Source of the DNA: Plasmodiophora brassicae
Taxonomy: Eukaryota
Assembly: GCA_036867785.1 (NCBI GenBank)
Contig: CP145421.1
Span: forward strand, 186,001-250,000
Direction: 5' to 3'
Length of the DNA stretch: 64,000 nt
Part shown: piece after piece, positions 8,703 to 52,280 of the stretch
How the letters are laid out: each line of letters begins with the position of its first letter
Position numbering within the stretch: the stretch's first letter is position 1
The notes under the pieces: model-generated
The model's input: only the letters and a program-made list of their open reading frames with translations
Database searches by the model: none
Told to the model about the DNA's origin: nothing
Translations under genes and position numbers: made by a program

Positions 8703-8775
8703 GCTCCTGTGGCCCAATGGTCAAGGCGCGTGCCTACGGAGCACGAGATTCCGAGTTCGAATCTCGGCAGGGGCT
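8703..8775 (+). tRNA. tRNA-Arg (anticodon ACG)
   Basis: Acceptor GCTCCTG/CAGGGGC, D-arm TGGCCCAATGGTCAAGGC, anticodon arm CGTGC-CTACGGA-GCACG, T-arm CCGAG-TTCGAAT-CTCGG; T-run Pol III terminator at about 8789-8793. Confidence 0.95.
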
Positions 8776-13753: not shown

Positions 13754-14989
13754 ATGTCGGGTGGAAGGGGCGACGCGATCACGTTCCCGGAGCTGGATGG
13801 CGAGTACGAGGTCCTCCGTGTGGTATCGCGTGGGACGTTCTCGACCGTGTACCTGGCGCGGCTGCGCGCCCACCCGGACCGGCATGTCGCGCTGAAGCGG
13901 GTCATGAGGACGTCCGCCCCGGAGCGGACGGCCAACGAGGTCGAATGCCTGATCATGGCCGGTGGCCGGTGCAATGTCTGCCCGATACTTCACGCGAACC
14001 GGTGCGTTCTGGTAGAAACCATGCCCACCGGTCTCGTGATGCGTCCTTCTCAGGTTCGAGGACCAGGTCACGCTCGTTCTGCAGTACTTCCCGCATGACG
14101 ACTTCAAGGATTACTTCGAGTGTGGCCATTCTACTGGTTCGGTGGTCATTACTAACCGGCTATGTGCAGCGTCATGACCCTGGACGAGATTCAAGCGTAC
14201 ATGTGGTCGCTGTTCGAAGCCCTGGAATGCGTTCATTCCCTGGGCATAATTCATCGGTCCGCGCGCATCCCCTCAGCAATGCAACACAAAGCAGTGTGTC
14301 TGACTGTTTGACAACGCAGAGATGTGAAGCCGTCGAACTTCTTGTACAATCGCGATGCGGGGCGGTTTCAGCTGATAGACTTCGGGTTGGCCCAGCAAGT
14401 TAGCAAGCTTCGCGAGAAAGGCGATCGTCGTGCTGCTGACCCTGGCGGGCCACGAGTGCCGCTAGGTGCAGTAGATCGCGCAGGTACGCGCGGGTTCCGG
14501 GCCCCTGAGGTCCTTCTCCTCGTGAAGCACCAGACGGTTGCCATTGACATATGGTCTGCTGGAGCTATTCTGCTTTGCATTATTACCGGACGGTACCCGT
14601 TCTTTCAGTCTGCCGACGACATGACCGCCATTGCGGAGGTATCCCTGCTCCTGTTTGCAAAGCGCATCGATCTCAGGCCGCTGCTGCACAGATGGCAGCA
14701 ATATTCGGATCGACGCGCCTACGTGAAGCGGCCGCAAGCTTGAACCGGTCGATATCTCTGCCGGAGCGCATACCCGCCCGGTCATGGAGAGATCTGCGGC
14801 AGTTCTTGGATGGCGGCTCGAGAGACGACCTGCCGGACACGCTCTTCGATCTCCTGGACAGATGCTTAGGTCGGGATGGCCTGACGATGCTGTTGTCGCA
14901 TTTGTATTCATCTGAAACCCGCAGAACCGAAACCGGGTTCCAGGATCACCGCTGCGGAAGCCCTGAAACATCCCTTCTTCAATACGTAG
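13754..14989 (+). CDS. CDC7: Cell division cycle 7 (CDC7) protein kinase, multi-exon
   Basis: GTFSTVYLA, VALKRVMRTSAPERTANEVECL..AGG, DVKPSNFL, DFGLA, RAGTRGFRAPEVL, QTVAIDIWSAG, GRYPFF, RITAAEALKHPFF. Confidence 0.9.
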
Positions 14990-15345
14990 AATATCTCAAA
15001 AGAACCCCCATTATTATTGCATCGCTTGATGGGCCCAACCGAAGGCCTGTGCACCCATTCGCGATCCACGTGCGTCCCATCTGGAATCCTGTTCGATAAG
15101 CTTGGACGAATCGCGTCTGTTTACATGATGCGCAGACCCAGGAATATGGAATTGTATAATACACGCTCTTGTCATGAAGGCTGTATAATACAGGTAATTC
15201 GGTCCGGATCCAAACCAATGTCCTGAACTAACTCATTCCCCTTCAATTGTTCGGGAAGCTGTCTCCGTCCCCCATCACGTTTGTTCTTTTCCGCCGATGT
15301 CGATGCAGACCAAAGGCCAAGCGTCGACGTGTGACAGACAACTGG

Positions 15346-15819
15346 GTCGGACGTGCTAGAGCAAGGAGCATCCCTGGCGGACCTGCAAGAAGGCCCGAGC
15401 ATGCTCGGGGAGTACACGTGCGGTGCAGCAGCGGCGAGCTGGCAAGCGGGACGAGCGAGGCGCCGGTGCGCAATCCAGGGAAGGGCGAGCGGCTCCGGGT
15501 ACCTGTCAAGATCGACCTCAATGAGTGCGATAAGGATCCGTGGGAAGATCGCGAGGCGGTGAAGACCTGACTGAACGAGCCATGTCGCTGGTCCGACGCG
15601 TGGACGCGAGTCGGGAGGACGCGGAGAACAACGTGCTGTCCAAGTACATGCACCCGGCCCAGCGGGGGCACGCCGGGGCGTCGACCTGGCTGTTCCCGAC
15701 CGAGTCGTTCGTGCAAGTGCTCGTGGACGCACGCGAATACCTCTTGGACAAGGAGGCGCGGATACGGCGGCCAAATCCCTCAAGCAGGGGGATGGCGAGA
15801 CCCTGACGGCCGTCCTGCC
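15346..15819 (+). mobile_element. Degenerate retroelement gag-like fragment(s)
   Basis: 15346-15393 recurs at about 18386-18433; 15778-15819 (LKQGDGETLTA) recurs inverted at about 18657-18698. Contains frameshifts and stops and is fused directly to a Copia integrase fragment. Confidence 0.5.
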
Positions 15820-17287
15820 TGTTACTTACGGAACCGCAGCAGCAGCAGGGCTCTGGACGTCGGAGTGACCCCGTACGAGAAGGTGCACAATGCCAAGCCG
15901 GACGTGGCACACCTGCGGATGTGGGGTTGCAGGGCCATGTATAAGGACGGCAAGGCCAGGAAGCTGGACTCGAAGGCGCGCAGAGGCATCTTCGTCGGAT
16001 ACCCGGAAGCGACCAAAGGCTACCGAGTCTACGACCCAGTAGTACGGTCCAAGGTCGCTATAACGAGAGACGTCGTGTTCTACGAAGACCAATTCGGCGA
16101 CGATGATGATGACGAAGTACCAGATCTGGTGTCGGAATCGGAAGATGATCAGGATGATGACGGTGGTAAGGAGCAGGAGGAGACCCAGGAACGACGTTCG
16201 GAACGAGAACGGAAGGCGCCTGTCCGGTATGGGCTCGACGAGTATGCCGGGATGGCGGTCGAGGAAACACTCCTGACGGCCCAAGGAGATCCGAGAACGA
16301 GGCTGGAGGCGCTAGAGTCGGCGAATGCACAAGAGTGGCAAGTCGCGATCGATGACGAGCTGCGAGCCCTGAACAAGAACCAGATCTGGGAGCTGTGCCC
16401 AAGACCAGCTGAACGGAAGGTCATCGACGGCCGTTGGGTGTTCAAACTGAAACAGGACCAGGATGGCAACCCATCTCGGTGCAAAGCTCGCTACGTTGCA
16501 CGAGGGTTCACTCAAGTCCCTGGAACGGATTTCGTGGACACCTACGCGCCGGTGGCATCAACGACAATGCAGAGGGCTCTATTGTCTATGGCTGCCATGA
16601 ACGACCTTGAGATCTACCAGCTCGATATTGAAACGAGTTTTCAACACCAGGATGTGCGCGAGGAGCTCTACATCGAGTTGCCGGAAGGGTATGTTTTCCC
16701 AGAAGGAACAAGCCGGAAGACACACTGCGGGAGGCTACAAAAGGCGCTGTACGGGCTCAAGCAGGCGGCGTTCGAGCTTGATCGAAAGATTCGAGACGTC
16801 CTGACGAAGGCGGGGTACACCTTCAGCAGAGAAGATCCGTGCGTATTCTACCGTGTGTACAAGGGCAACTATCTGGTCTGCACAATTCATATCGACGACT
16901 TGTGCGTGGCGACGACGGTAAGGCTGATCATGTACGAGGATTTGAAGCAAGCGCTGGAAAAGGAGTTTCCTGTCAAGGATCTAGGCGATGTCAACTTCCT
17001 GCTAGGTTGCAAGATCGAACGAGACCGGAAGCGAAGGACATTGGCATTGAGCCAACAGGCGTACGCGAAGCGAGCGGTGGAGCGCTTCAACATGCACGAT
17101 GCAAAACCGGCCGCTACTCCAAGCTCGACCTCGATGCAGCTAAAGAAGGGGCCAGCGGTCGACAGCGGGTTCCCGTACCGTGAGGCGGTCGGGACGTTGA
17201 TGTATTTGGCGGTCATGACGCGGCCGGATATCATGGAGGCGGTCAGCGCTGTCGCTAGGTTTGTCGAATGCCCAACCGCAGAACACG
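15820..17287 (+). mobile_element. Truncated Ty1/Copia LTR-retrotransposon pol (integrase C-terminus + reverse transcriptase)
   Basis: YLRNRSSSRAL..TPYEK..KPDVAHLRMWGC, KLDSKARRGIFVGY, RWVFKLK, KARYVARGFTQ, QLDIETSF, LQKALYGLKQA, HIDD, KDLG, YREAVGTLMYL..TRPDI; no gag, protease or LTR recognised. Confidence 0.95.
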
Positions 17288-18135
17288 CCACCGCTCCTCC
17301 GTTCAGCGGCATGAGCATGCCCGAGACCGACCTGCGATCGTCAGGGTCTTGCGCCCACGTCGCGTCCCCATACACCCGTAGACCGTTCTCTATTCCGAAC
17401 ACGATCCCGTGCTCGATCGTCCTCTTGACGTACCGGAGAATGCGCTTCACAGCGGTTACGTGTTCTGCGGTTGGGCATTCGACAAACCTAGCGACAGCGC
17501 TGACCGCCTCCATGATATCCGGCCGCGTCATGACCGCCAAATACATCAACGTCCCGACCGCCTCACGGTACGGGAACCCGCTGTCGACCGCTGGCCCCTT
17601 CTTTAGCTGCATCGAGGTCGAGCTTGGAGTAGCGGCCGGTTTTGCATCGTGCATGTTGAAGCGCTCCACCGCTCGCTTCGCGTACGCCTGTTGGCTCAAT
17701 GCCAATGTCCTTCGCTTCCGGTCTCGTTCGATCTTGCAACCTAGCAGGAAGTTGACATCGCCTAGATCCTTGACAGGAAACTCCTTTTCCAGCGCTTGCT
17801 TCAAATCCTCGTACATGATCAGCCTTACCGTCGTCGCCACGCACAAGTCGTCGATATGAATTGCGCAGACCAGATAGTTGCCCTTGTACACACGGTAGAA
17901 TACGCACGGATCTTCTCTGCTGAAGGTGTACCCCGCCTTCGTCAGGACGTCTCGAATCTTTCAATCAAGCTCGAACGCCGCAGGTGTCCACGAATCCGTT
18001 CCAGGGACTTGAGCGAACCCTCGTGCAACGTAGCGAGCTTTGTACCGAGATGGGTTGCCGTCCTGGTCCCGTCTCAGTTTGAAACACCCAACGGCCGTCG
18101 ATGACCTTCCGTTCAGCTGGTCTTGGGCACAGCTC
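17288..18135 (-). mobile_element. Second, inverted and internally deleted copy of the same Copia RT region, reaching the start of RNase H
   Basis: 17459-17981 is the reverse complement of 16765-17287, and 17982-18135 is the reverse complement of 16390-16543. 17288-17458 continues in frame on the minus strand (AVKRILRYVK...YGDATWAQDPDDRRSVSG). Confidence 0.95.
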
Positions 18136-18643
18136 GCGCTAGGAGTACTGGGGGAACGGCCCCGATCACGCACAGGACAACGAGGTCTATGACATCTACC
18201 TGGCGTCGCTCAACACGCAGGACGTGCGCAACAAGCTCGAGACAAAGCACATGCTCTGGGAGCATCTGGAGACTTGGCGGACGTACCGCGGGAAGATCGC
18301 GTTCATACGCGAATGCCTGTACGAGGAACGCAATGCTGAAGCCGACGAAGATGGCGGTCGTCGGCGCGGTCGGCAAGACAGTGCGTCGGACGTGCCAGAG
18401 CAAGGAGCATTCCTGGCGGACCTGCAAGAAGGCTTGGCGTCGTCTGCGTTGCGCTCCTCGTAGAGGCATTCGCGTATGAACCCGATCTTCTCCCGGTAGG
18501 TCCGTCGCGTCTCCAGATGCTCCCAGAGCATGTGTTTGATCTCGAGATGGCCGCGCACCTGCGTGTTGAGCGACGCCAGGTAGATGTCATAGACCTCGTT
18601 GTCCTGTGCGTGACCGGGGCCGTTCTCCCGGTACTCCTAGCGC
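18136..18643. repeat. Inverted repeat of a gag-like fragment (arms about 18136-18339 and 18443-18643)
   Basis: The outer 86 bp of the arms differ at 3 positions; the inner parts encode diverged paralogous peptides (KHMLWEHLET.RTYR.KI.FIRECLYEERNA). Confidence 0.9.
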
Positions 18644-19551
18644 CGCCTCGAGCCGGGGCAGGAAGGCCGTCAGGGTCTCGCCATCCCCCTGCTTGAGGAC
18701 CTCCTTGGCTGCGAGAGGACCATCGCCCTGGAGTCGTCCAGATCCAGTCCGAGTGTCGCGATCTCTCCCCTCTGCTGGATTCGTTCCTCGTCCTGGACCT
18801 TCAAGTGCGCGATGGTCGACCCCAACATGGTGCGCATCTCGTCCAAGTTCTCCGCCTTGACTGTGATCGCCGCACCCGTCGACGCATCGTCCGCCGAAAT
18901 GGTTCACCCCGTTTCTGCAAACGGTTGTGTGTGCTGGACACACGCCGCGGGGATTGCTTTTGGGCACGTGCAGCCGATATTCAGACTCCACACCTGCGTA
19001 GACCGCTCGAATACAACCGTTTGTAGAATACAGACATTCGGGGCCAGGTGCTCTCGACGCCGTGACTGGGTGGTACTCGCCACCAACGCCAACCAGCAAA
19101 CGCAGGGCCTCTCCTGCCGTGGACGCTGCTTCACGACTCTGACAAGCACGTCCGTCCCAAGTTTCCCGTCGACGACGTCACAGATGCGTCCATTATCATC
19201 GCGCATTGCCCCATTATTCGATGTTGAACAACTTCGATGTCGGCAGGTGTCGGTGCGTACTTCATGCAGGACGCACCTTTACGAAGAAGTTTCTCCCGTG
19301 TCGCGCGTCGAAAGTGCGCGTGTGACGACCAGACAGGACCAGACCATGCATCGCTGACGGTCGTTGAACTCCGGACGCGACGGACGCCTGTCCCGCCCGC
19401 GGGGTCCGCACGAACATCGCTGCGACGCAATCTATTTCTGGCGATTCCGCGGCTCTACCTGTAGCTACAGTCGCCTGCTTGCCAAAATCCTGTCTGGCGT
19501 GGATCGCGCGGACAGTCTGCAGACCCTCCAACGACAGCTTCAGCAGCGGCA

Positions 19552-20571
19552 ATGAAGGCGACCACGTTCGCTCCAGTTCTGGTGGTACTGGCGGCGCTAG
19601 CGGGTGCGGACCACTTCCAGTTCGGCGTTGGCCAGCGCGAACGTTGCGTCGAGCGCGCCTGCCGCGGCGCCGGCAGCTCGATGACGAGCGTGACGGTAAC
19701 GAGTTGCACCCAGCTCAATGCATTGGGGAAACACATCAAGCAAGTTCCGAATCTCGTGTCGATTATATTCATTGGCGAGTGGACCCCGAGATGCTCCGTC
19801 CGCAACGTTGGATCGCTCATTCACAAGATCGACGCGTCGCGAACGCCGACGTCGGACATCAGTGCCCTGTTGCACCTCACCGATCTTGTCGACCTGGACC
19901 TGTCCCACAGCCACGTCTCGGGCAGCGTCGATGTCGCCAAGTTGTCGAGCCTTGTTCAGCTGGACTTATCGCATACCGCCATCACGTCACTGACGGGGCT
20001 GGGCGACCTGAAGAATGTGAACTACCTCGATGCTTCGTACACGCCGCTGACGAGTGTTTCCGGGCTCGACCAGCTGGATCGCTTGGTCGTCCTGGACCTG
20101 TCCCACACGAAATTGCGGTTTCTGAGGAGAGTTGAGACACTACCGAATCTGGCCTACGTGGACCTGTCTCACACACGGCTTCGGAGCGCCTCCGGTTTGC
20201 TTTCTGACGCGCATCTTCTGTCATTCCTAAACTTGGACGAGACGTCAATACCAGAACGCGACACGGTGCCGCCGGGAGCTGGAGCGCCGCAAACCCTGAA
20301 GGACGACCTGGAGCTGGAAATCCTTGCCATGGAAGCGCTGGACGTGTCCGGGGGAGCGATGGTCACGAAGTGGAGCGCGCTGCTGAAGGAATCGAAACGC
20401 GTACTGGACGACTGCGAGTCGGGCGTGTTCCTGAAGGAAGTGGAGGACAGCGGGAGCTACGAGAACAAGGCCGACATGACGGAACAGGCTCGTCGTGACA
20501 ATGATGCTCGCGCACGCAAAGCCTTAGTGATGATCAAGGAGTGCTACCTGCACCTACTGGATGACAATTGA
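19552..20571 (+). CDS. Secreted leucine-rich repeat protein (candidate effector), single exon
   Basis: Signal peptide MKATTFAPVLVVLAALAGA; about 6 LxxLDLSHTxL repeats; helical C-terminal domain. Confidence 0.88.
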   Translation: MKATTFAPVLVVLAALAGADHFQFGVGQRERCVERACRGAGSSMTSVTVTSCTQLNALGKHIKQVPNLVSIIFIGEWTPRCSVRNVGSLIHKIDASRTPTSDISALLHLTDLVDLDLSHSHVSGSVDVAKLSSLVQLDLSHTAITSLTGLGDLKNVNYLDASYTPLTSVSGLDQLDRLVVLDLSHTKLRFLRRVETLPNLAYVDLSHTRLRSASGLLSDAHLLSFLNLDETSIPERDTVPPGAGAPQTLKDDLELEILAMEALDVSGGAMVTKWSALLKESKRVLDDCESGVFLKEVEDSGSYENKADMTEQARRDNDARARKALVMIKECYLHLLDDN

Positions 20572-27342: not shown

Positions 27343-27878
27343 TCAGGTTTCAGGGGGGACGGGGGTGTCCGTACACTCGGCCGAACGAATTGAGTGCCCT
27401 GGATCCGATCCGAAGCCGATTCCTGACCGGCCGGGACGCACGGTGACAGAGATGGGGGTAACCATACCGCTGGAGGCGTGGCCTGCGTGCCATAACAGCA
27501 TATGAGGCCCAGGCGCATAACACTGCCTACGAACGGTTCGTTACCTAGGCCAGAACCAGCAGTCCAACCCATTTTCCGCAGGATACGATGCCCGACGTTG
27601 CAGCTGGGGATCTCCTGCTCCTGCTGCACGTCGAACGAAACGTTCCCGTGTGCACCAGGCTCGCGGGCAGGCGACCGCCGCTGCCGAAAGCGCCGCCATC
27701 GCCCGCCTGTGGCCGCCGCCGTCTTCACCTCCAGCGATAACGACGGCGGCGGCATCGGAAAATCGTCGGCCATGTCCTCCTCGACAGGCGCGCTGGTCGG
27801 GCACGTGGCCGTGTCCGACGGGAATCGCTGCGCGATGTCCTTCCAGACGTCCTGGACGCTGTCAGCCGTGTCCTGCAT
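27343..27878 (-). CDS. Small G-patch domain protein
   Basis: IPSCNVGHRILRKMGWTAGSGLG, continuing after an intron as ...GMVTPISVTVRPGRSGIG. The start is uncertain. Confidence 0.75.
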
Positions 27879-28059
27879 CGGCCTGTAGGAGGTACGCGAT
27901 GCGGCGCCGTCGACGGACTCCGTGGCGGCGCTGTCGCGATGATGATCCGACGGGGTCTAGCGGTGAATTGGCGGTCGACATCGGCGGCTGTGGGCTTGCG
28001 CAGGTACTCTGCTCCACACCGTCGAACGATCTCAGAGTTGAAACGCTACAGACAACTGT

Positions 28060-28335
28060 TAGCCTCATCATACGCGATGATTTGTTCACGGCCCTTGAAG
28101 GATTCAAGGGCCGTACGTGCTCTCCCCGATCTTGATATACTCGTCGAGCTCGTCGCCCGGTAACCCGTAGCACAGCATGCGGTTCGCTGCTGTACACGTC
28201 TGGATTGTAGACAGGCCTGGTACACCCAACACATCGACTCGTTGAATGACCTGACCTGTCGTCATTTCAAAGTGTACAGCAGCGAACCGCGTGCTTTGGT
28301 AGGGGTTTCCGCCCGGCGCGCTCGACGAGTATACT
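28060..28335. mobile_element. PIF/Harbinger-type transposase relics, two copies in inverted orientation
   Basis: The minus strand reads LGVPGLSTIQTCTAANRMLCYGLPGDELDEYIKIGEST, matching the GLS..QKCTAA.RMLAYG...D..DEY.RIGEST motif of Harbinger (Plant_tran-like) transposases. The plus-strand copy reads KCTAANRVLW*GFPPGALDEY. Confidence 0.75.
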
Positions 28336-28727
28336 ATAAGTACCTACAGTGTACCTATGGAGAACGAGAGACAGGACCGTTCTACAAACCCCAAACGTGG
28401 CGTAGCTCGTTCGTGGATTTGGTCCCGTGCCCAGAGTCGGCGGCCGTCCCTGCGAGGCTGAGTAGGTGGCTCTTGGACGGTGAACGGGTTCGCGAAGAAC
28501 GCGCGAGTGAATTGCCCCTCGACATGACTCAGAGCGTCGGCCTGGAGCTCCACATCCGGCAGCCGAGGCAAGCTTGTAAGACAAGCCGCCTGCAGGCGAT
28601 CGGAGGGACGAACAAGATCCCCGTTCTCATATGGCTTTCGCGCAACGGGTTCTAGGAGAAGGTGGTATCCTGCCTGGGAAGGTCGTGCCAGGCGGTCTGA
28701 CTTACGCTTGTAACATTCTCGACCGGA

Positions 28728-30634
28728 ATGGGAGCGGCCCTCCTGGATGATAATGTTGGGCCTCCCGTCATTCGCGGCCCTGTCGTCCCGGGAATGGAGG
28801 TGTTTCCGCCGCGGGCCGTCCTCCAGCAATTGGACCTTGTCCCGCTGGGCACCCTGATCGTCATCTACGGTTCCTGGTTACGCGCTGACACCGCCTCTGC
28901 ATTCCCTGATACTCGCGCGCGTAGTGTACTTCCTGTGCGTCGCATCGTCAATCCTGTCCCGCGGATGCAACATGCTCCTCCAGATCTACGGTCCAGGCGT
29001 CATTGGCGGTCTGGTTATCCCAATGCTCGGTCAGTATCGGGCGTGTACAGCGGTCGTTGCCACCCCGGTCGGGTAACATCGGTCCTGCGGCAGGTGCCAT
29101 CCCGGACGGCGTCCTGATCCTGATATCGGGGATGGGGACCGGCAGTACGCACGACATCCAGAAGGACATGGCAGTGGGGATCGGCACCCTGACCGGGTCC
29201 AGCATCATGCTGATCACGATCCCGTGGGCGGCGGGCGTCTGGCTCGGCAGGCGCGATATCCACCCGGCCACCGGCCTGGCCATGAGCACGGTCGTCAACG
29301 GCACTGTGCGACCAATGTACACGAAGTTCACCTGGACGATGACGGGCGTCACCGCGTTCCACGAGATCGCCTACCTCGCCAAGACGATGATGGCGACCGC
29401 CCTGCTGTACCTCGTCATCCAGATCCCGGCCATGTTCTTCCGACAGGACCAACAGGCGGGCGACGAGGAGCGAATGTACGCCATCCTCGGGTTCTGCGGC
29501 TCCATGGCCGCCTTCGTCGCCTACAGCGTCGTCCAGCTTCGCAGCGTCGAAGGCCACGAGATGCAGAGGCAGCGGCAGAAGTCGACGAAGCGGAGGCACT
29601 GGGAGAAGACGCTGGCGCGGCAGCTGACGCCCGGCAAGAGCCTGCGCCTGGTCTTCAAGACGTTCGACCTCGACGACGACGAGTTCATCGACCGGCCCGA
29701 GCTGGTCCGGTGCCTGAACTCGCTCGGCCTGGACGCCGACCGGCGCGACGTCAACGCGATCCTGAAGGAGATGGACGGCGGCGGCCTGCGCCGGCAAAGT
29801 ACGCACGTTGACTGCACGGGGAACATTCGCTCGCCCGCACTCTCCGCTGACTGCGCGACTGCCGACGCAGATTCCGACGAGCGCATCTCGTACCGCGAGT
29901 TCGAGCAGTTCTTCACGCGCGCCATCACGCTGGACGACAAGCGGCGATCGCGCACGGATCGCCCGTCGATGGCGACGGGCCTGCTGGACGCGTCCGTTGA
30001 CGGCGTGCCCGACGCCGACGACTGGGACGACGACTGCGACGAGGAGGAGCGCATGTACGTGCACCTGTCGGATGCGCAGATCCAGTGGAAGGCGCTGCGG
30101 ACGCTGACGTTCGGCGCCGCCCTCGTCACGCTGTTCTCGTTCCCGCTCGTGACGACCATGGCCGTGTTCGCCGACAAGGTCGGCGTCAGCGCGTTCTACG
30201 TCAGCTTCGTGGTCGCCCCGTTCGCCAGCAACGCCAGCGAGGTCATGGCCGCGCTGCAATTCGCCACCAAACGCAACTCGAAGGGCGTGTCGCTCATGTT
30301 CGGGTCGCTGTACGGCTCGGCGAACATGAATGTAGGGTGGTGTCGGCCGCACGGAATGCCGACATTGACGACGACGCTGACGTTGTGCCAGAACACGTTC
30401 GCGCTATCCATCTTCCTGGGCCTGGTCGCGTTCCGCGGCCTGCAATGGCTGTTCACTGCCGAGGTCGTCGTCATCCTGTTCGTCACGTTCGCGGTCGGCA
30501 TGCAGGGGCGGCGCCGGACGGTCCGCATGTACCAGGCGGCGCTGGTCGCCGCCCTGTACCCGTTCAGCATCATGGCCATCTACGGCCTGAAGCGCCTGGG
30601 CCTGGACAAGGGGTACCACCGCACGCCGACATGA
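28728..30634 (+). CDS. EF-hand-containing Na+/Ca2+ exchanger-like protein (NCL/EFCAX type)
   Basis: GPGVIGGLVIPMLGAIPD, VGIGTLTGSSIMLITIPW, EF hands DLDDDEFIDRPEL and DSDERISYREF, FYVSFVVAPFASNASE. Confidence 0.88.
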
Positions 30635-46682: not shown

Positions 46683-47104
46683 GTCTAAACGCGCTGTTGT
46701 TCCTTGGCCTGAGACGACAATATCGAAGTGATTGGGACGGATCGCTCGACGCCCGCCACATCGCCCGTTGCTTGCGTCGCCCCTGGGCCTGGGGTACCCC
46801 GCGCCCCGCCCCGGGGCAACGTTAACGCACCCCGGCCCCGTTTGAATAATATCTTCCCCGTCTGTGACGACGCGCCGACCCAGTCGCACCGCGCGCGCCT
46901 TCGCTCGCCCACCGCGTCGTTGTTCCACACGCAGCTGACGTTACGCGGCCGGGCCGTTCGTCGGTCCCCGCTGGGAACGGCGGCACGCGAGGCGGCGCGG
47001 CCAGGCGCGTGCGAGGCGTCTAATGCCCGGGCAGCCGGCAATACACAATGTTCGCCGCGCTCGTCATCACCACCCTGCTGGGCGCGTTGTGGTAGCGCGT
47101 GCTG

Positions 47105-48852
47105 CTAGACGTTTATGGACGATTGCAGGTCGCGCAGGGCGTGCACGATTCGTAACCGGCGGGCGGCGTCATCGGGCTGGGCGGCGGCGGGCCCGGCAGG
47201 GCGCGGGGTCGGCGCGTCCCGGCACGTGACGGTGCGCAGGCGCTGCACCAGGTCGAGCTTGGCGTCCAGCTGCCTGCGCGCGCTGTCCTGTCGCCTGGGG
47301 ACGCGGGCCGGCGACCCGGGCCGCCACACCGCGAACTGCGGGCCTGTCTCCCGCAGGTCCTTCCTCAGCCGGCGGATGTCCCGGTCGAGGACGTCGAGCA
47401 CCTCCGACACCGGGACGTCGGGCGACCCGGCCGTCGTTTTCTTCTTCTTCGTCGTCGTCGTCGTCGTCGTCTTCTTCCGCGTCCCGGTCGCCGCTGCCTT
47501 CCTCGGCGCCGGCACCGACAACAGGTCGTACACCAGGTCCCTCATGCCGGCGAGCTTCTCGTTCAGGGCGGCGACCTCGGCGCGGGCCGACGCGGCCGTC
47601 CGGTCGGCGGCGTCGGCGCGGCGCTGCTCGGCGCCCGCCTCGGCCTGCAGGGCTTGCACCGTCGACGACGCGTCCGACTCGGCGCGGGCCCGACTCGCCT
47701 CCAGGGCGGAAACGCGCGCCTCCGCCCGGTCCAGCGCCGCCTGCACGGCCGCCAGGCGCGCCTGCGCCGTGCTGGCCCCCACCTGTGACGCACCCACGGT
47801 CACGCACCCGGCAACGTGTGTGCGTGCGCGCCACGCACCTCGCCGTCGCGCGCCCGGCGCTGCAGCGCGTCGTTCGCGCTCGTCTGGGCGGCCAGCGCCG
47901 ACTGGGCCTCGTGCAGGCGCCGGTCGGCGTCGGCCAGGGCGGCGGCGAGTCGGTCGCGGTCGCGGCGCACGTCGTCGCCGGCGACGCGCAGCTCGCCGGC
48001 CTGGTCGCCGACGGCGGCGGCGGCGCGCCTCGCCTCGTCGACCTGGGCGCGCAGCTCGACGATCCTGTTGCGGTCGGCCTGGAGCGTCTCGCGCAGCTCC
48101 CCGATCGTCACCTGCGCCTGGGCGAGCGCCTTGGCGTCGGCGTCGCCCTGGTCGGCGCGGCGCGACAGCTGGGCGACCCGGTCGCGCAGCGCCCGGACGT
48201 CGGCGTCCAGGTGCGTCTTCTCCGCCTGGACCAGGGCCTCCTTCAGCGCGTCCTCCGCCTTGCGTTTGGCGACCTCGTTGCCCAGCAGGTCGCAGCGCTG
48301 CTGCAGGTCGCGGGCCTGCCTGGCGGCCGCGTTCCGGGCGCCGGTCACCGTCGCCAGCTGCTCCTTCAGGGTGCAGACGAGCGCGCGCTGCTCGTCGGCG
48401 CCCGCCTCCGCCGCCTTCATCGCCGCCTGCAGCTCGCGGTTCGTCTCCTTCAGGCTGGGGACGACGTCGCGCAGGGCCCGGTCGAGGTCGCGTCGCAGGT
48501 CGGCGCCGGCCCCCTCGAGCTGTTCCGTGTGCCTCTTCGCCGCCAGGTGCGCCGCCTTCCACCGCTGCACCTCGCCGCGCAGCGCCCCGAGCGCCTCGGT
48601 CGACGTGCGCAGCTGGCCGTCCCTGCGGTCCAGGTCGGCGGCCAGCGCCGACGCGCGCGCCCGCGCCTGGTCCCGGTCGTTCTCCGCCTGGCGCAACGCG
48701 TGCGCCGCCTCGGCCGCCGCCCGGGCGTGCACCGCCCGCTCCGTCTCCAGTCGGGCGTGCAGCTCCGTGTGCGCCAGGCGCAGCGCCACCAGGTCGTTGC
48801 GGTCGGCGTCCGGCGCGCCGCCCCTCCCCAGCGACGACGTCGTCCTCGCCAT
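47105..48852 (-). CDS. Long coiled-coil protein (possibly centrosomal/ciliary), two exons
   Basis: A/R/L/E-rich heptads in ORF 47800..49026 starting at MARTTSS, spliced to VGASTAQARLAAVQAALDRAE... Confidence 0.75.
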
Positions 48853-48934
48853 CCCGACTGACGGTACGCCAAACGATCCGCTATGTAGGTATGTCGGCCC
48901 AGGCCCACCTGGCGCCACCACCGGGGGTGGGTGC

Positions 48935-49021
48935 CCCGACTGCGTGGCTGCAGCTCCGCACGTTTCCCGACTGCGCCGCTGCAGCTCCGCAAATTTCCCG
49001 ACTGCGTGGCTGCAACGCGCA
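48935..49021. repeat. 31-bp intergenic tandem repeat, about 2.8 copies
   Basis: CCCGACTGCG(TG/CC)GCTGCAGCTCCGCA(CG/AA)TTT starting at 48935, 48966 and 48997. Confidence 0.9.
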
Positions 49022-49060
49022 GTCACGCCTCGCTATTTCCGTCGTCGTCGCGCGTATGCT

Positions 49061-50173
49061 TTATGCATTCGCGGGCGCGTCGATGCCGATCCAGACGGAC
49101 TTGCTGAGGACGGAGACGACGATCCATTCGTCGTGGCGCCGGACGAGCCACTGGCCGTCGCGTCGGACGGGGCGGCCGTCGGCGCCGACCACGACGACGG
49201 GTCGGCCGCGCTCGTCGGTGGCGACCCGGCCCGGGAAGGTTTCGCTGCGCAGCCGGATGCCGACCGTCATGATGCCGACCTTCATCATCAGGTCGCCGGG
49301 GCGCACCGCCGCCAGGCGCCCGTGGTCGTCGATCGTCACCTGGACCTGTCGCTTCAGCAGCAGGCGCCGCGCCTCCTTCGCCCGTTTCCGTATCTTGCCG
49401 TTGCCGTCGACGACGTACGTGTCGGGCGCCTCGACGTCGATCACGGCCCGGTCCTCGCCACCGCCGATTAGGTCGACGACGGCGACGCCCTTGTCGACGC
49501 GGGCACCCTGGAACACGTTCGTCGACACGACCGTCACGCCCAGCTTGGCCGCAAACCGTCGCACGACATCGTCGACCTGCTTCCCCGTGTACGCCCGCGA
49601 CCGCCCGTCCTGTAACGCCCTCATCGCATCCCACGCCGCCGCCTCCTTCACCGCGCTGCTGCGCTTGCTCGCTTCCTGGGCCTGGGCCGGTTGGACCTCG
49701 GCCGGTGCTGGTGGTGGTGGTCCGGGTTCAGCCTCCACAGCTGGCGTGCGTCCGGCCGTCAACGTCGTCGCCGACGCAGCCGGCCACCAGGCACGTGGTG
49801 GGACGGGGTCGTGCACCGGCACCGTCAGGGCGGTTCGCGGCGCCGACCTGGGCGCAGGGCGTCGGGTGAACCGGGCGTACGGGCGCAGGCACCGTTGCAT
49901 GATGCATCCGAACCGCCCCTGCAGGCCAGGCAGGGCGCTGGACACGACGGACACGCCGACGACCCTGTCGAGGTCGTCGACGGCGGCCAGGCCGGCAGCG
50001 CCGACCTGCACGACAGTGCCGTCGGGCACGCCGACGTACGAGAAGTACGGCCAGACGCAGCAGACGACGGTGCGGCACATGAGGACCGCCTGGCCGTTGG
50101 CGGCCACGACGAAGCGCTCGCCGCGGGCCGCGATCAGCGGTCGCTCCTCGTCGTCGTCGTCGTCGTCGGCCAT
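49061..50173 (-). CDS. Hypothetical protein
   Basis: 370-aa ORF with an ATG start, GC3-rich codons and a Pro/Ala linker between two Val-rich regions; no family recognised. Confidence 0.65.
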   Translation of the reverse strand: MADDDDDDEERPLIAARGERFVVAANGQAVLMCRTVVCCVWPYFSYVGVPDGTVVQVGAAGLAAVDDLDRVVGVSVVSSALPGLQGRFGCIMQRCLRPYARFTRRPAPRSAPRTALTVPVHDPVPPRAWWPAASATTLTAGRTPAVEAEPGPPPPAPAEVQPAQAQEASKRSSAVKEAAAWDAMRALQDGRSRAYTGKQVDDVVRRFAAKLGVTVVSTNVFQGARVDKGVAVVDLIGGGEDRAVIDVEAPDTYVVDGNGKIRKRAKEARRLLLKRQVQVTIDDHGRLAAVRPGDLMMKVGIMTVGIRLRSETFPGRVATDERGRPVVVVGADGRPVRRDGQWLVRRHDEWIVVSVLSKSVWIGIDAPANA

Positions 50174-50443
50174 CGTGTTTGCGCCCGATGATGATGGGCG
50201 CGCGAGTCGACGTGGTGGTAGCCGCCCGTCCCAGCAGTGCAGTGGGCTCGGCTACCAACCATTCGACGTTGCATGTAGGATCCTAGTCGCATGCCCTGCA
50301 AGTCGCACGGAAGAAGTCGACGACGAAGACGGGGTCCTTAGCAAGCAGGGCACCAGGGGGCTCGACAACCCGAAACAGAGCCGTTGCATCGTTCTCGTCG
50401 TGTACTACTTATATATTGTACGAGTATTAACATGGCGCGCGCC

Positions 50444-52280
<1,837 letters not shown>

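Follow-up and report, generated by a model that had tools for sequence, protein, structure and literature searches.

How does a scrambled set of retroelement pieces come to lie, folded into two long inverted repeats, between two genes of Plasmodiophora brassicae, and could it act on its relatives elsewhere in the genome? The locus in question occupies positions 15343–18894, about 3.5 kb, of a 64-kb window (64,000 nucleotides of contig CP145421.1, assembly GCA_036867785.1, positions 186,001 to 250,000; all coordinates below are those of the window), with a gene on each side. A first-pass annotation of the DNA had read it as a mosaic of transposable element (TE) fragments and a candidate source of silencing hairpin RNA. 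Our analysis suggests, with a probability that we put at about 0.6, that it is a dead mosaic devoid of long terminal repeats (LTRs), built during break repair from at least six fragments of two P. brassicae retroelement families, and that the inverted repeats arose as a by-product.

A mosaic of six retroelement fragments

On the + strand, the six fragments of the locus (F1 to F6) follow one another in the order gag amino acids (aa) ~338–360, gag 117–252, pol 606–1111, inverted pol 1166–813, gag 257–362, and inverted gag 333–236 plus 62–3. The pol fragments come from a young Ty1/Copia family and the gag fragments from a lineage-specific (Plasmodiophora) CCHC gag-like family. This anatomy, and the homology of each fragment to its family, are established by domain and protein searches.

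The label 'Copia pol' of the first-pass annotation was confirmed by a retroviral SH3-like domain (E = 3e-24) and RVT_2 (E = 4e-52) in the open frame 15571–17859 (762 codons). The nearest full-length Copia relative, P0004 (1310 aa), is 54% identical, and the best full-length relatives reach only 53–54% (3516 of 8000 candidates at E ≤ 0.001); a metagenome scan gave 22 loci, all at most 45% identical, which were not used. Mapping against P0004 placed copy A on the + strand (aa 606–1111 at 15772–17295) and copy B on the − strand (aa 813–1166 at 18123–17286). Copy A, fragment F3 (15820–17287, +), supplies the left arm of hairpin 1. Truncated on its 5' side at 15820, it takes in the SH3-like domain of the integrase C terminus and all of RVT_2 (model positions 1–242 of 244). 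Copy B, fragment F4 (17285–18135, −), covers RVT_2 positions 133–242, with the C-terminal half of the domain in the inverted frame 17960–16887; it has lost 221 nt internally and shows two 1-nt indels. The tails of the two copies abut: canonical sequence extends to 17287 in copy A and to 17285 in copy B, with 3 nt, ACG (17285–17287), overlapping at the centre. On its 3' side copy B continues into RNase H for 165 nt beyond the end of copy A, and the 'loop' of hairpin 1 is this added part (17288–17458). An intact Ty1/Copia polyprotein was not encountered at the locus; protease and integrase core are absent, and of RNase H only the start is present. The 762-codon frame itself is accidental: it opens in a gag fragment, traverses the Copia reverse transcriptase (RT) and the centre of the hairpin, and ends in what is antisense sequence of the opposite arm. 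A gene caller could report it as an RT gene, which makes it an annotation hazard.

For the gag-like part, 1.84 billion representatives were searched by phmmer, the query being the left arm of hairpin 2, and four matched at E ≤ 0.001. The best, P0131 (396 aa, 77% identical), is named 'CCHC-type domain-containing protein [Plasmodiophora brassicae]' at NCBI and carries two CX2CX4HX4C motifs, read by eye. Neither Pfam gag nor zf-CCHC matched P0131 at E ≤ 0.1, and no gag-pol fusion of this family stood among the longer proteins, which is weak evidence. It is solely through homology to P. brassicae CCHC proteins that the label 'gag-like' is borne out.

Positions of the gag fragments were taken from tblastn with P0131. 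The short fragment F1 (15343–15402, +) corresponds to the first CCHC zinc-knuckle region (aa ~338–360) with a weak match (E = 5e-4), and contains a 52-nt direct repeat (15343–15394). F2 (15400–15819, +) covers aa 117–252 (E = 9e-36) with two frameshifts, and its final 42 nt (15778–15819) appear again, inverted, at 18657–18698. F5 (18136–18437, +), the left arm and loop of hairpin 2, corresponds to aa ~257–362 (tblastn span 18143–18452, aa 260–362; 76% identity over aa 260–324). F6 (18438–18894, −), the right arm of hairpin 2, covers aa 3–62 (18894–18688) and then aa 236–333 (~18720–18421), with aa ~63–235 deleted, and includes the 42-nt piece at 18657–18698. In gag, the end of F2 and the start of F5 lie 13 nt apart. 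The pol palindrome, 15820–18135, is therefore a patch inside a + oriented gag fragment, as though it had filled a break there. The gag of two Copia relatives, P0004 and P0005, gave no tblastn match in 15343–15820 or 18136–18900, and two families are therefore probably involved.

Every fragment end is gene-internal, and several of the pieces are non-collinear, in mixed orientation and without element ends. No LTRs were found; the only direct repeat of at least 30 nt in 14500–19500 is the 52-nt gag piece, and no tandem repeats were found. The patchwork of gag-like and Copia pol fragments without a recognizable LTR, as first described, is thus reproduced by the six mapped fragments and the lack of any LTR-like direct repeat.

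Two abutting inverted repeats and their predicted fold

The two abutting inverted repeats of the first-pass annotation are present, with coordinates that were correct to within a few bases. Hairpin 1 (16390–18135) has a main pairing of 531 nt (16765–17295 with 17451–17981, 99% complementary) and a second of 158 nt (16390–16546 with 17979–18135, 95%). Base-by-base alignment places the true main arms at 16765–17287 and 17459–17981, with 2 of 523 positions mismatched. The right arm lacks the 221 nt that stand at 16544–16764 in the left arm and differs by the two 1-nt indels, and five further mismatches cluster in an 89-nt block, 16441–16529. Hairpin 2 (18136–18643) pairs 18136–18344 with 18438–18643 and is less uniform, its outer 86 nt being 97% and its inner 121 nt 83% complementary. 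Between its arms there are 23 substitutions, of which 12 fall on third codon positions, and one 3-nt indel that keeps the frame; the spectrum of substitutions is mixed, and no bias of the kind left by repeat-induced point mutation (RIP) or deamination was seen between these arms.

Two short pieces had been said to recur out of order (15346–15393, and 15778–15819 in inverted form). Both recurrences are real: 15343–15394 is found again at 18382–18433 (52 nt, 94%), and 15778–15819 inverted at 18657–18698 (42 nt, 98%). They are not extra captured pieces. The 52-nt repeat exists because F1 and F5 cover a common part of gag, and the 42-nt inverted repeat because F2 and the inverted F6 do.

The longest exact inverted match in 15343–18881 is 405 nt, against a mean of 12.4 and a maximum of 16 in 100 dinucleotide shuffles. 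Inverted pairs of at least 60 nt within 5 kb of each other number five in the whole window, four of which lie inside the locus. We folded both strands of 15343–18881 with ViennaRNA. Hairpin 1 is predicted to form 677–680 arm-to-arm base pairs, its longest uninterrupted helix being 405 bp in the + strand RNA and 522 bp, with G-U pairs, in the − strand RNA. For hairpin 2 the prediction is 184 arm-to-arm pairs with a minimum free energy (MFE) of −416.9 kcal/mol (z = −31 against 100 shuffles), and the 42-nt pieces form a 41-bp closing stem in the predicted fold.

A perfect 16-nt palindrome (15394–15409) sits exactly on the F1/F2 junction, where by our estimate ~0.05 would be expected by chance per 3.5 kb. 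A small snap-back in the course of repair may have left it there.

Junctions and family copies in independent reads

Independent read data came from 24 listed runs, none of which is on record as RNA. Six runs contain 0.81–0.88 of the words sampled from the locus: three plant-metagenome runs of one study (P1) and three of 'organism A' from another (P2). Logan contigs were placed on the locus from runs X1 (P1), X4 (P2), X9 and X19, and what follows on contig pieces refers to the 29 of 131 pieces that were listed. A common set of contigs, at single-copy depth and 100% identity, occurs in both X1 and X4 and covers five stretches: 15000–15807, which is part of a 7062-nt contig; 16413–16745, the block unique to copy A; 17933–18112, which bridges the deletion junction of copy B; 18192–18587, the centre of hairpin 2 with the F5/F6 junction; and 18669–18973, the right boundary of the locus. 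These junctions are thereby established in reads from two studies.

Other copies of the families read on past 15820, 17285 and 18881, where they appear as loose contig ends whose letters translate as the expected continuations of integrase and RNase H. These positions are therefore true truncation points. Near-identical copies are likewise established: depth over the pol part is 2–5 times that of single-copy sequence, and pieces of 330–566 nt with 0–1 differences occur in other runs, which indicates that the Copia family is young and multi-copy. Gaps in cover, such as the bin 17679–17819 in X1 and X4, are most likely due to contig placement on the mirror arm, and we do not count them as a finding.

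X9 and X19, both guessed to be RNA, contributed 8 and 5 contig pieces. Each piece listed is fragment-internal or loose-ended and of the canonical family type, and carries no weight on expression of the locus, either way. Near-identical canonical Copia pieces, as opposed to locus-specific parts, are also what X9–X11 and X18 contain ('organism B', guessed RNA), and the Copia family may be expressed if these runs are truly RNA. X12–X16 (same species label) share ~0.25 of the sampled words and might lack the locus.

Break repair as the proposed origin of the mosaic

By what route could fragments without ends have been brought together? Retroelement complementary DNA (cDNA), or ectopic copies, might have been captured at a break and end-joined; alternatively, a repair polymerase might have switched templates and strands several times. 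Ordinary integrations would not be the builder of such a locus. The alternating orientations of the inserted fragments would then have produced the two long inverted repeats as a by-product. In yeast, Ty1 cDNA is reportedly captured at double-strand breaks.

Differences between the arms bear on these routes. At three of the seven positions where copies A and B differ (16454, 16464 and 16882), the copy B letter is that of another contig of the family, so that separate donors or gene conversion fit better than mutation after a local duplication. In hairpin 2, the in-frame indel and the substitutions indicate that the arms had already diverged, as coding copies of the family, when they came together, and hence that they did not arise by local duplication. 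Junction homology is seen as the 3-nt overlap at 17285–17287, and the other junctions come without both parental sequences. Patches left by break capture resemble the locus in that they consist of LTR-less internal fragments, several per site and in either orientation; the junctions of such patches have 0–3 nt of homology. Experimental break patches usually hold one or two short fragments, whereas the locus has six fragments from two families over 3.5 kb. Capture of retroelement sequence at breaks is reported for the mouse zygote (PMC4516963) and for yeast (PMC11372161).

Several observations weigh against a repair origin or limit its support. The main arms of hairpin 1 are 99.6% identical, and a local fold-back duplication fits this equally well. 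Gene conversion from arm to arm could be the source of the uneven divergence, and insertion by repair is something that we infer from anatomy alone. None of the junctions 15819/15820, 17285–17287 and 18135/18136 is among the contig pieces listed, which leaves the centre of hairpin 1 without direct independent confirmation. Study P2 may be the source of the assembly itself.

An alternative that we hold to be rather unlikely is that hairpin 1 formed in place within one resident Copia fragment. After resection of a break, the 3' end would have folded over, primed by 3 nt of homology located 171 nt upstream, with its own strand as the template, and the right arm would later have suffered deletions and replacement. 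The 3-nt central overlap with its 171-nt spacer and the 2 mismatches per 523 nt agree with such priming, as does the 42-nt gag piece that adjoins copy A and is found inverted to the right of the palindrome; inverted insertions templated by fold-back at breaks are documented (PMC11724301). Yet the right arm would require a 221-nt deletion, two indels and an exchange of 570 nt for the gag palindrome, and neither the five mismatches within 89 nt nor the three of seven differences that equal alleles of other family copies would be expected. The inverted 42-nt piece is more simply part of the separate inverted gag fragment F6, and hairpin 2, whose arms are 3–17% diverged with an in-frame indel, is left unexplained.

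Nested insertion of whole elements in opposite orientations, whittled down afterwards by deletions, appears improbable. TE-into-TE insertion is common, and more than half of the P. brassicae structural variants overlap TEs according to passages of 10.64898/2026.10.14.759018, but at least three to four full insertions and at least six deletions would be needed, with all LTRs lost while 3.5 kb stayed behind. All fragment ends are internal, and no other TE domain was found in the window open reading frames (ORFs) examined. It is very unlikely, finally, that the locus is a chimera of assembly or amplification, for instance a false palindrome from long reads. Artefacts with abutting palindromes are known, and the centre of hairpin 1 is missing from the bridging contigs listed. 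Against this stand the asymmetry of the arms (the 221-nt deletion, the indels and the divergence), the short-read contigs of two studies that hold arm-specific junctions and the hairpin 2 centre at single-copy depth and 100% identity, and the six runs that contain 0.81–0.88 of the sampled words. Overall, a mosaic assembled at one or more repaired breaks, with hairpins as a by-product, remains our preferred reading.

Genomic setting and a second fold-back at 28 kb

Upstream of the locus lies a protein-kinase exon (14312–14740, +; Pkinase, E = 4e-19) and downstream an LRR gene, whose ORF (19465–20568, +) matches LRR_4 (E = 1.7e-12), as had been annotated. The upstream neighbour had been called CDC7; what we identified in it is a protein-kinase domain. 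Between F6 and the LRR gene, a short piece of another repeated family (18929–18992) adjoins F6 on the right. It has a bin depth of ~3 times single copy in X1 and X4, while in X9 its contigs show raised depth and loose ends on both sides, and it may be a 5' untranslated region or LTR remnant of the inverted gag element. The remainder of the window is gene-dense. TE domains were absent from all 100 ORFs of at least 170 aa beyond 10–30 kb, and from all 35 ORFs taken from 10–15 kb and 19–30 kb with the locus excluded, and the locus is the sole retroelement relic within the window.

Three other features of the window were recorded. An ORF at 28925–30631 (569 aa) shares 90% identity with a Plasmodiophora brassicae protein at NCBI and 56% with one from Spongospora. 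A tRNA gene lies at 8703–8775 (+; 60.2 bits) and is the only Rfam match in the window. The region 47000–50500 has a G+C content of 71–76% and open frames of up to 1140 codons on both strands, with no Pfam domain.

At 28 kb, the first-pass annotation had placed a Harbinger relic arranged as an inverted pair, and concluded that both TE loci of the window form hairpins. The pair is real: 28136–28197 and 28272–28333 are 62-nt inverted copies (85%), and 28136–28333 folds as a 198-nt hairpin (MFE −126.3 kcal/mol, z = −12.5). The Harbinger identity is unsupported. No transposase was found in the 14 ORFs of at least 50 aa in 27496–29114 at E ≤ 1, nor in the 7 ORFs of at least 130 aa between 27339 and 30403, so that the DDE transposase remnant expected of a PIF/Harbinger relic is missing from these ORFs; nor does any coding signal surround the fold-back. 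The 14-nt ends of the fold-back are unique to the site, except for one chance match with one mismatch. The stretch looks like a fold-back of the miniature inverted-repeat transposable element (MITE) type or a small hairpin locus, and in a species whose palindromic regions reportedly yield 21-nt RNAs it could itself be a small hairpin-RNA precursor. Inverted ends would be intrinsic to a MITE-like element; the pair does not qualify as another captured relic of a TE, and the statement that two TE loci of the window form hairpins does not hold.

This bears on the broader suggestion that the genome has evolved to keep a silencing memory in the form of TE pieces stored as fold-back arrays, which we regard as highly implausible. 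In its favour are this locus alone and the distribution of P. brassicae small RNA (sRNA) loci, which are mainly intergenic with TEs second, as stated in passages of PMC13547706. The window, in contrast, holds a single retroelement relic, and its second 'TE hairpin' is MITE-like and transposase-free.

Could the hairpins give rise to silencing RNA?

If not a memory, might the locus still be a source of hairpin RNA? The modelled fold makes this plausible. Read-through from the upstream + strand kinase gene would be the simplest source of a transcript, in the form of + strand hairpin RNA, and a transcript across the locus would form two stems, one of ~680 bp and one of 184 bp. From such double-stranded RNA (dsRNA), the Drosha-like RNase III PbDRL should release 21-nt RNAs for loading on PbAGO1/2. 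In sequence these would correspond to the RT of the near-identical Copia copies and to the gag family. We see close to even odds that the locus yields detectable 21-nt RNAs, and consider it unlikely that these matter for TE control.

The species has a pathway that could act on such a substrate. As given in the relevant passages of a 2026 study (PMC13547706), P. brassicae has two Argonautes (AGOs) and no Dicer, a Drosha-like RNase III is required for sRNA biogenesis, and the sRNAs are AGO-dependent; 90% of them are 21 nt long, and they are phased with a 5' C bias. The legend of Fig. 2G of that study presents a palindromic region that gives 21-nt RNAs, termed microRNAs (miRNAs) by the authors, and in its Table S5 Copia accounts for 286 elements (0.96% of the genome), Gypsy for 983 and PIF_Harbinger for 30.

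A stronger version holds that the locus is a working trans-silencer, whose hairpins yield 21-nt small interfering RNAs (siRNAs) that repress active Copia and gag families, and whose arrangement was kept by selection. Its stem of 405–522 bp is near-perfect and directed against the RT of a family with other copies at least 99% identical; the upstream gene is co-directional, as described for Mu killer in passages of PMC3440606; and RNA interference (RNAi) processing of a palindromic locus is reported for the species in the parts of PMC13547706 cited above. A repair accident, though, fully explains the structure. The Copia family still looks young and is multi-copy, which does not suggest effective silencing, and no sign of conservation reaches beyond the two studies to which X1 and X4 belong; the runs X2, X3, X5 and X6 contain 0.81–0.87 of the words. 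We therefore judge a selected trans-silencer to be unlikely. More speculative still, and doubtful, is a general scheme in which TE control in this Dicer-less rhizarian is seeded by long hairpin loci that break repair puts together from retroelement cDNA. The present one would be a natural two-family 'killer', its 21-nt products made by PbDRL and acting against an active Copia family and a CCHC-gag family, and its presence or absence among isolates would follow the reported differences in TE load between clubroot lineages.

What is at stake depends on the RNA. Were the locus transcribed and diced, it would be the first described TE-derived hairpin RNA (hpRNA) locus in Rhizaria, a natural substrate of a Drosha-like, Dicer-free RNAi pathway, and a concrete case of a genome first 'learning' to silence a retrotransposon family. 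Otherwise it would be an ordinary scrambled TE relic, and still a clean example of multi-fragment capture from two families.

Comparison with known hairpin loci

The first-pass annotation had likened the locus to maize Mu killer. This likeness is apt as regards structure. Two traits of a killer-type locus were found, a TE inverted duplication capable of forming long dsRNA and near-identical target copies elsewhere. As with Mu killer, part of a TE coding sequence is present in inverted duplicate, functional ends are missing, and a host gene that points the same way lies upstream; for Mu killer the hairpin RNA was proposed to come from read-through of the flanking gene (PMC3440606). The differences are considerable. 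Mu killer consists of a single MuDR fragment, duplicated where it stood, for which a transcript, siRNAs and heritable silencing are reported, in a plant with RNA-directed DNA methylation (RdDM). Our locus combines six fragments of two families, has one hairpin whose arms are diverged copies, and resides in a rhizarian without Dicer. The palindromic region presented in PMC13547706 is closer in host, being from the same species and likewise palindromic; as far as that account goes, it is intergenic and gives phased 21-nt RNAs. Inverted TE duplications that start silencing also include an Ac/Ds case (preprint 10.1101/2020.01.07.897926).

The locus belongs to a known class, that of TE-derived inverted-repeat loci. 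In Drosophila hpRNAs and in the inverted-repeat siRNA loci of mouse oocytes, a single-strand transcript of a long inverted repeat folds and is diced, and the siRNAs act in trans. These animal loci are defined by their small-RNA data and the P. brassicae locus by its genomic structure, with a hairpin 1 stem (at least 405 bp perfect) that lies at the long end of their range.

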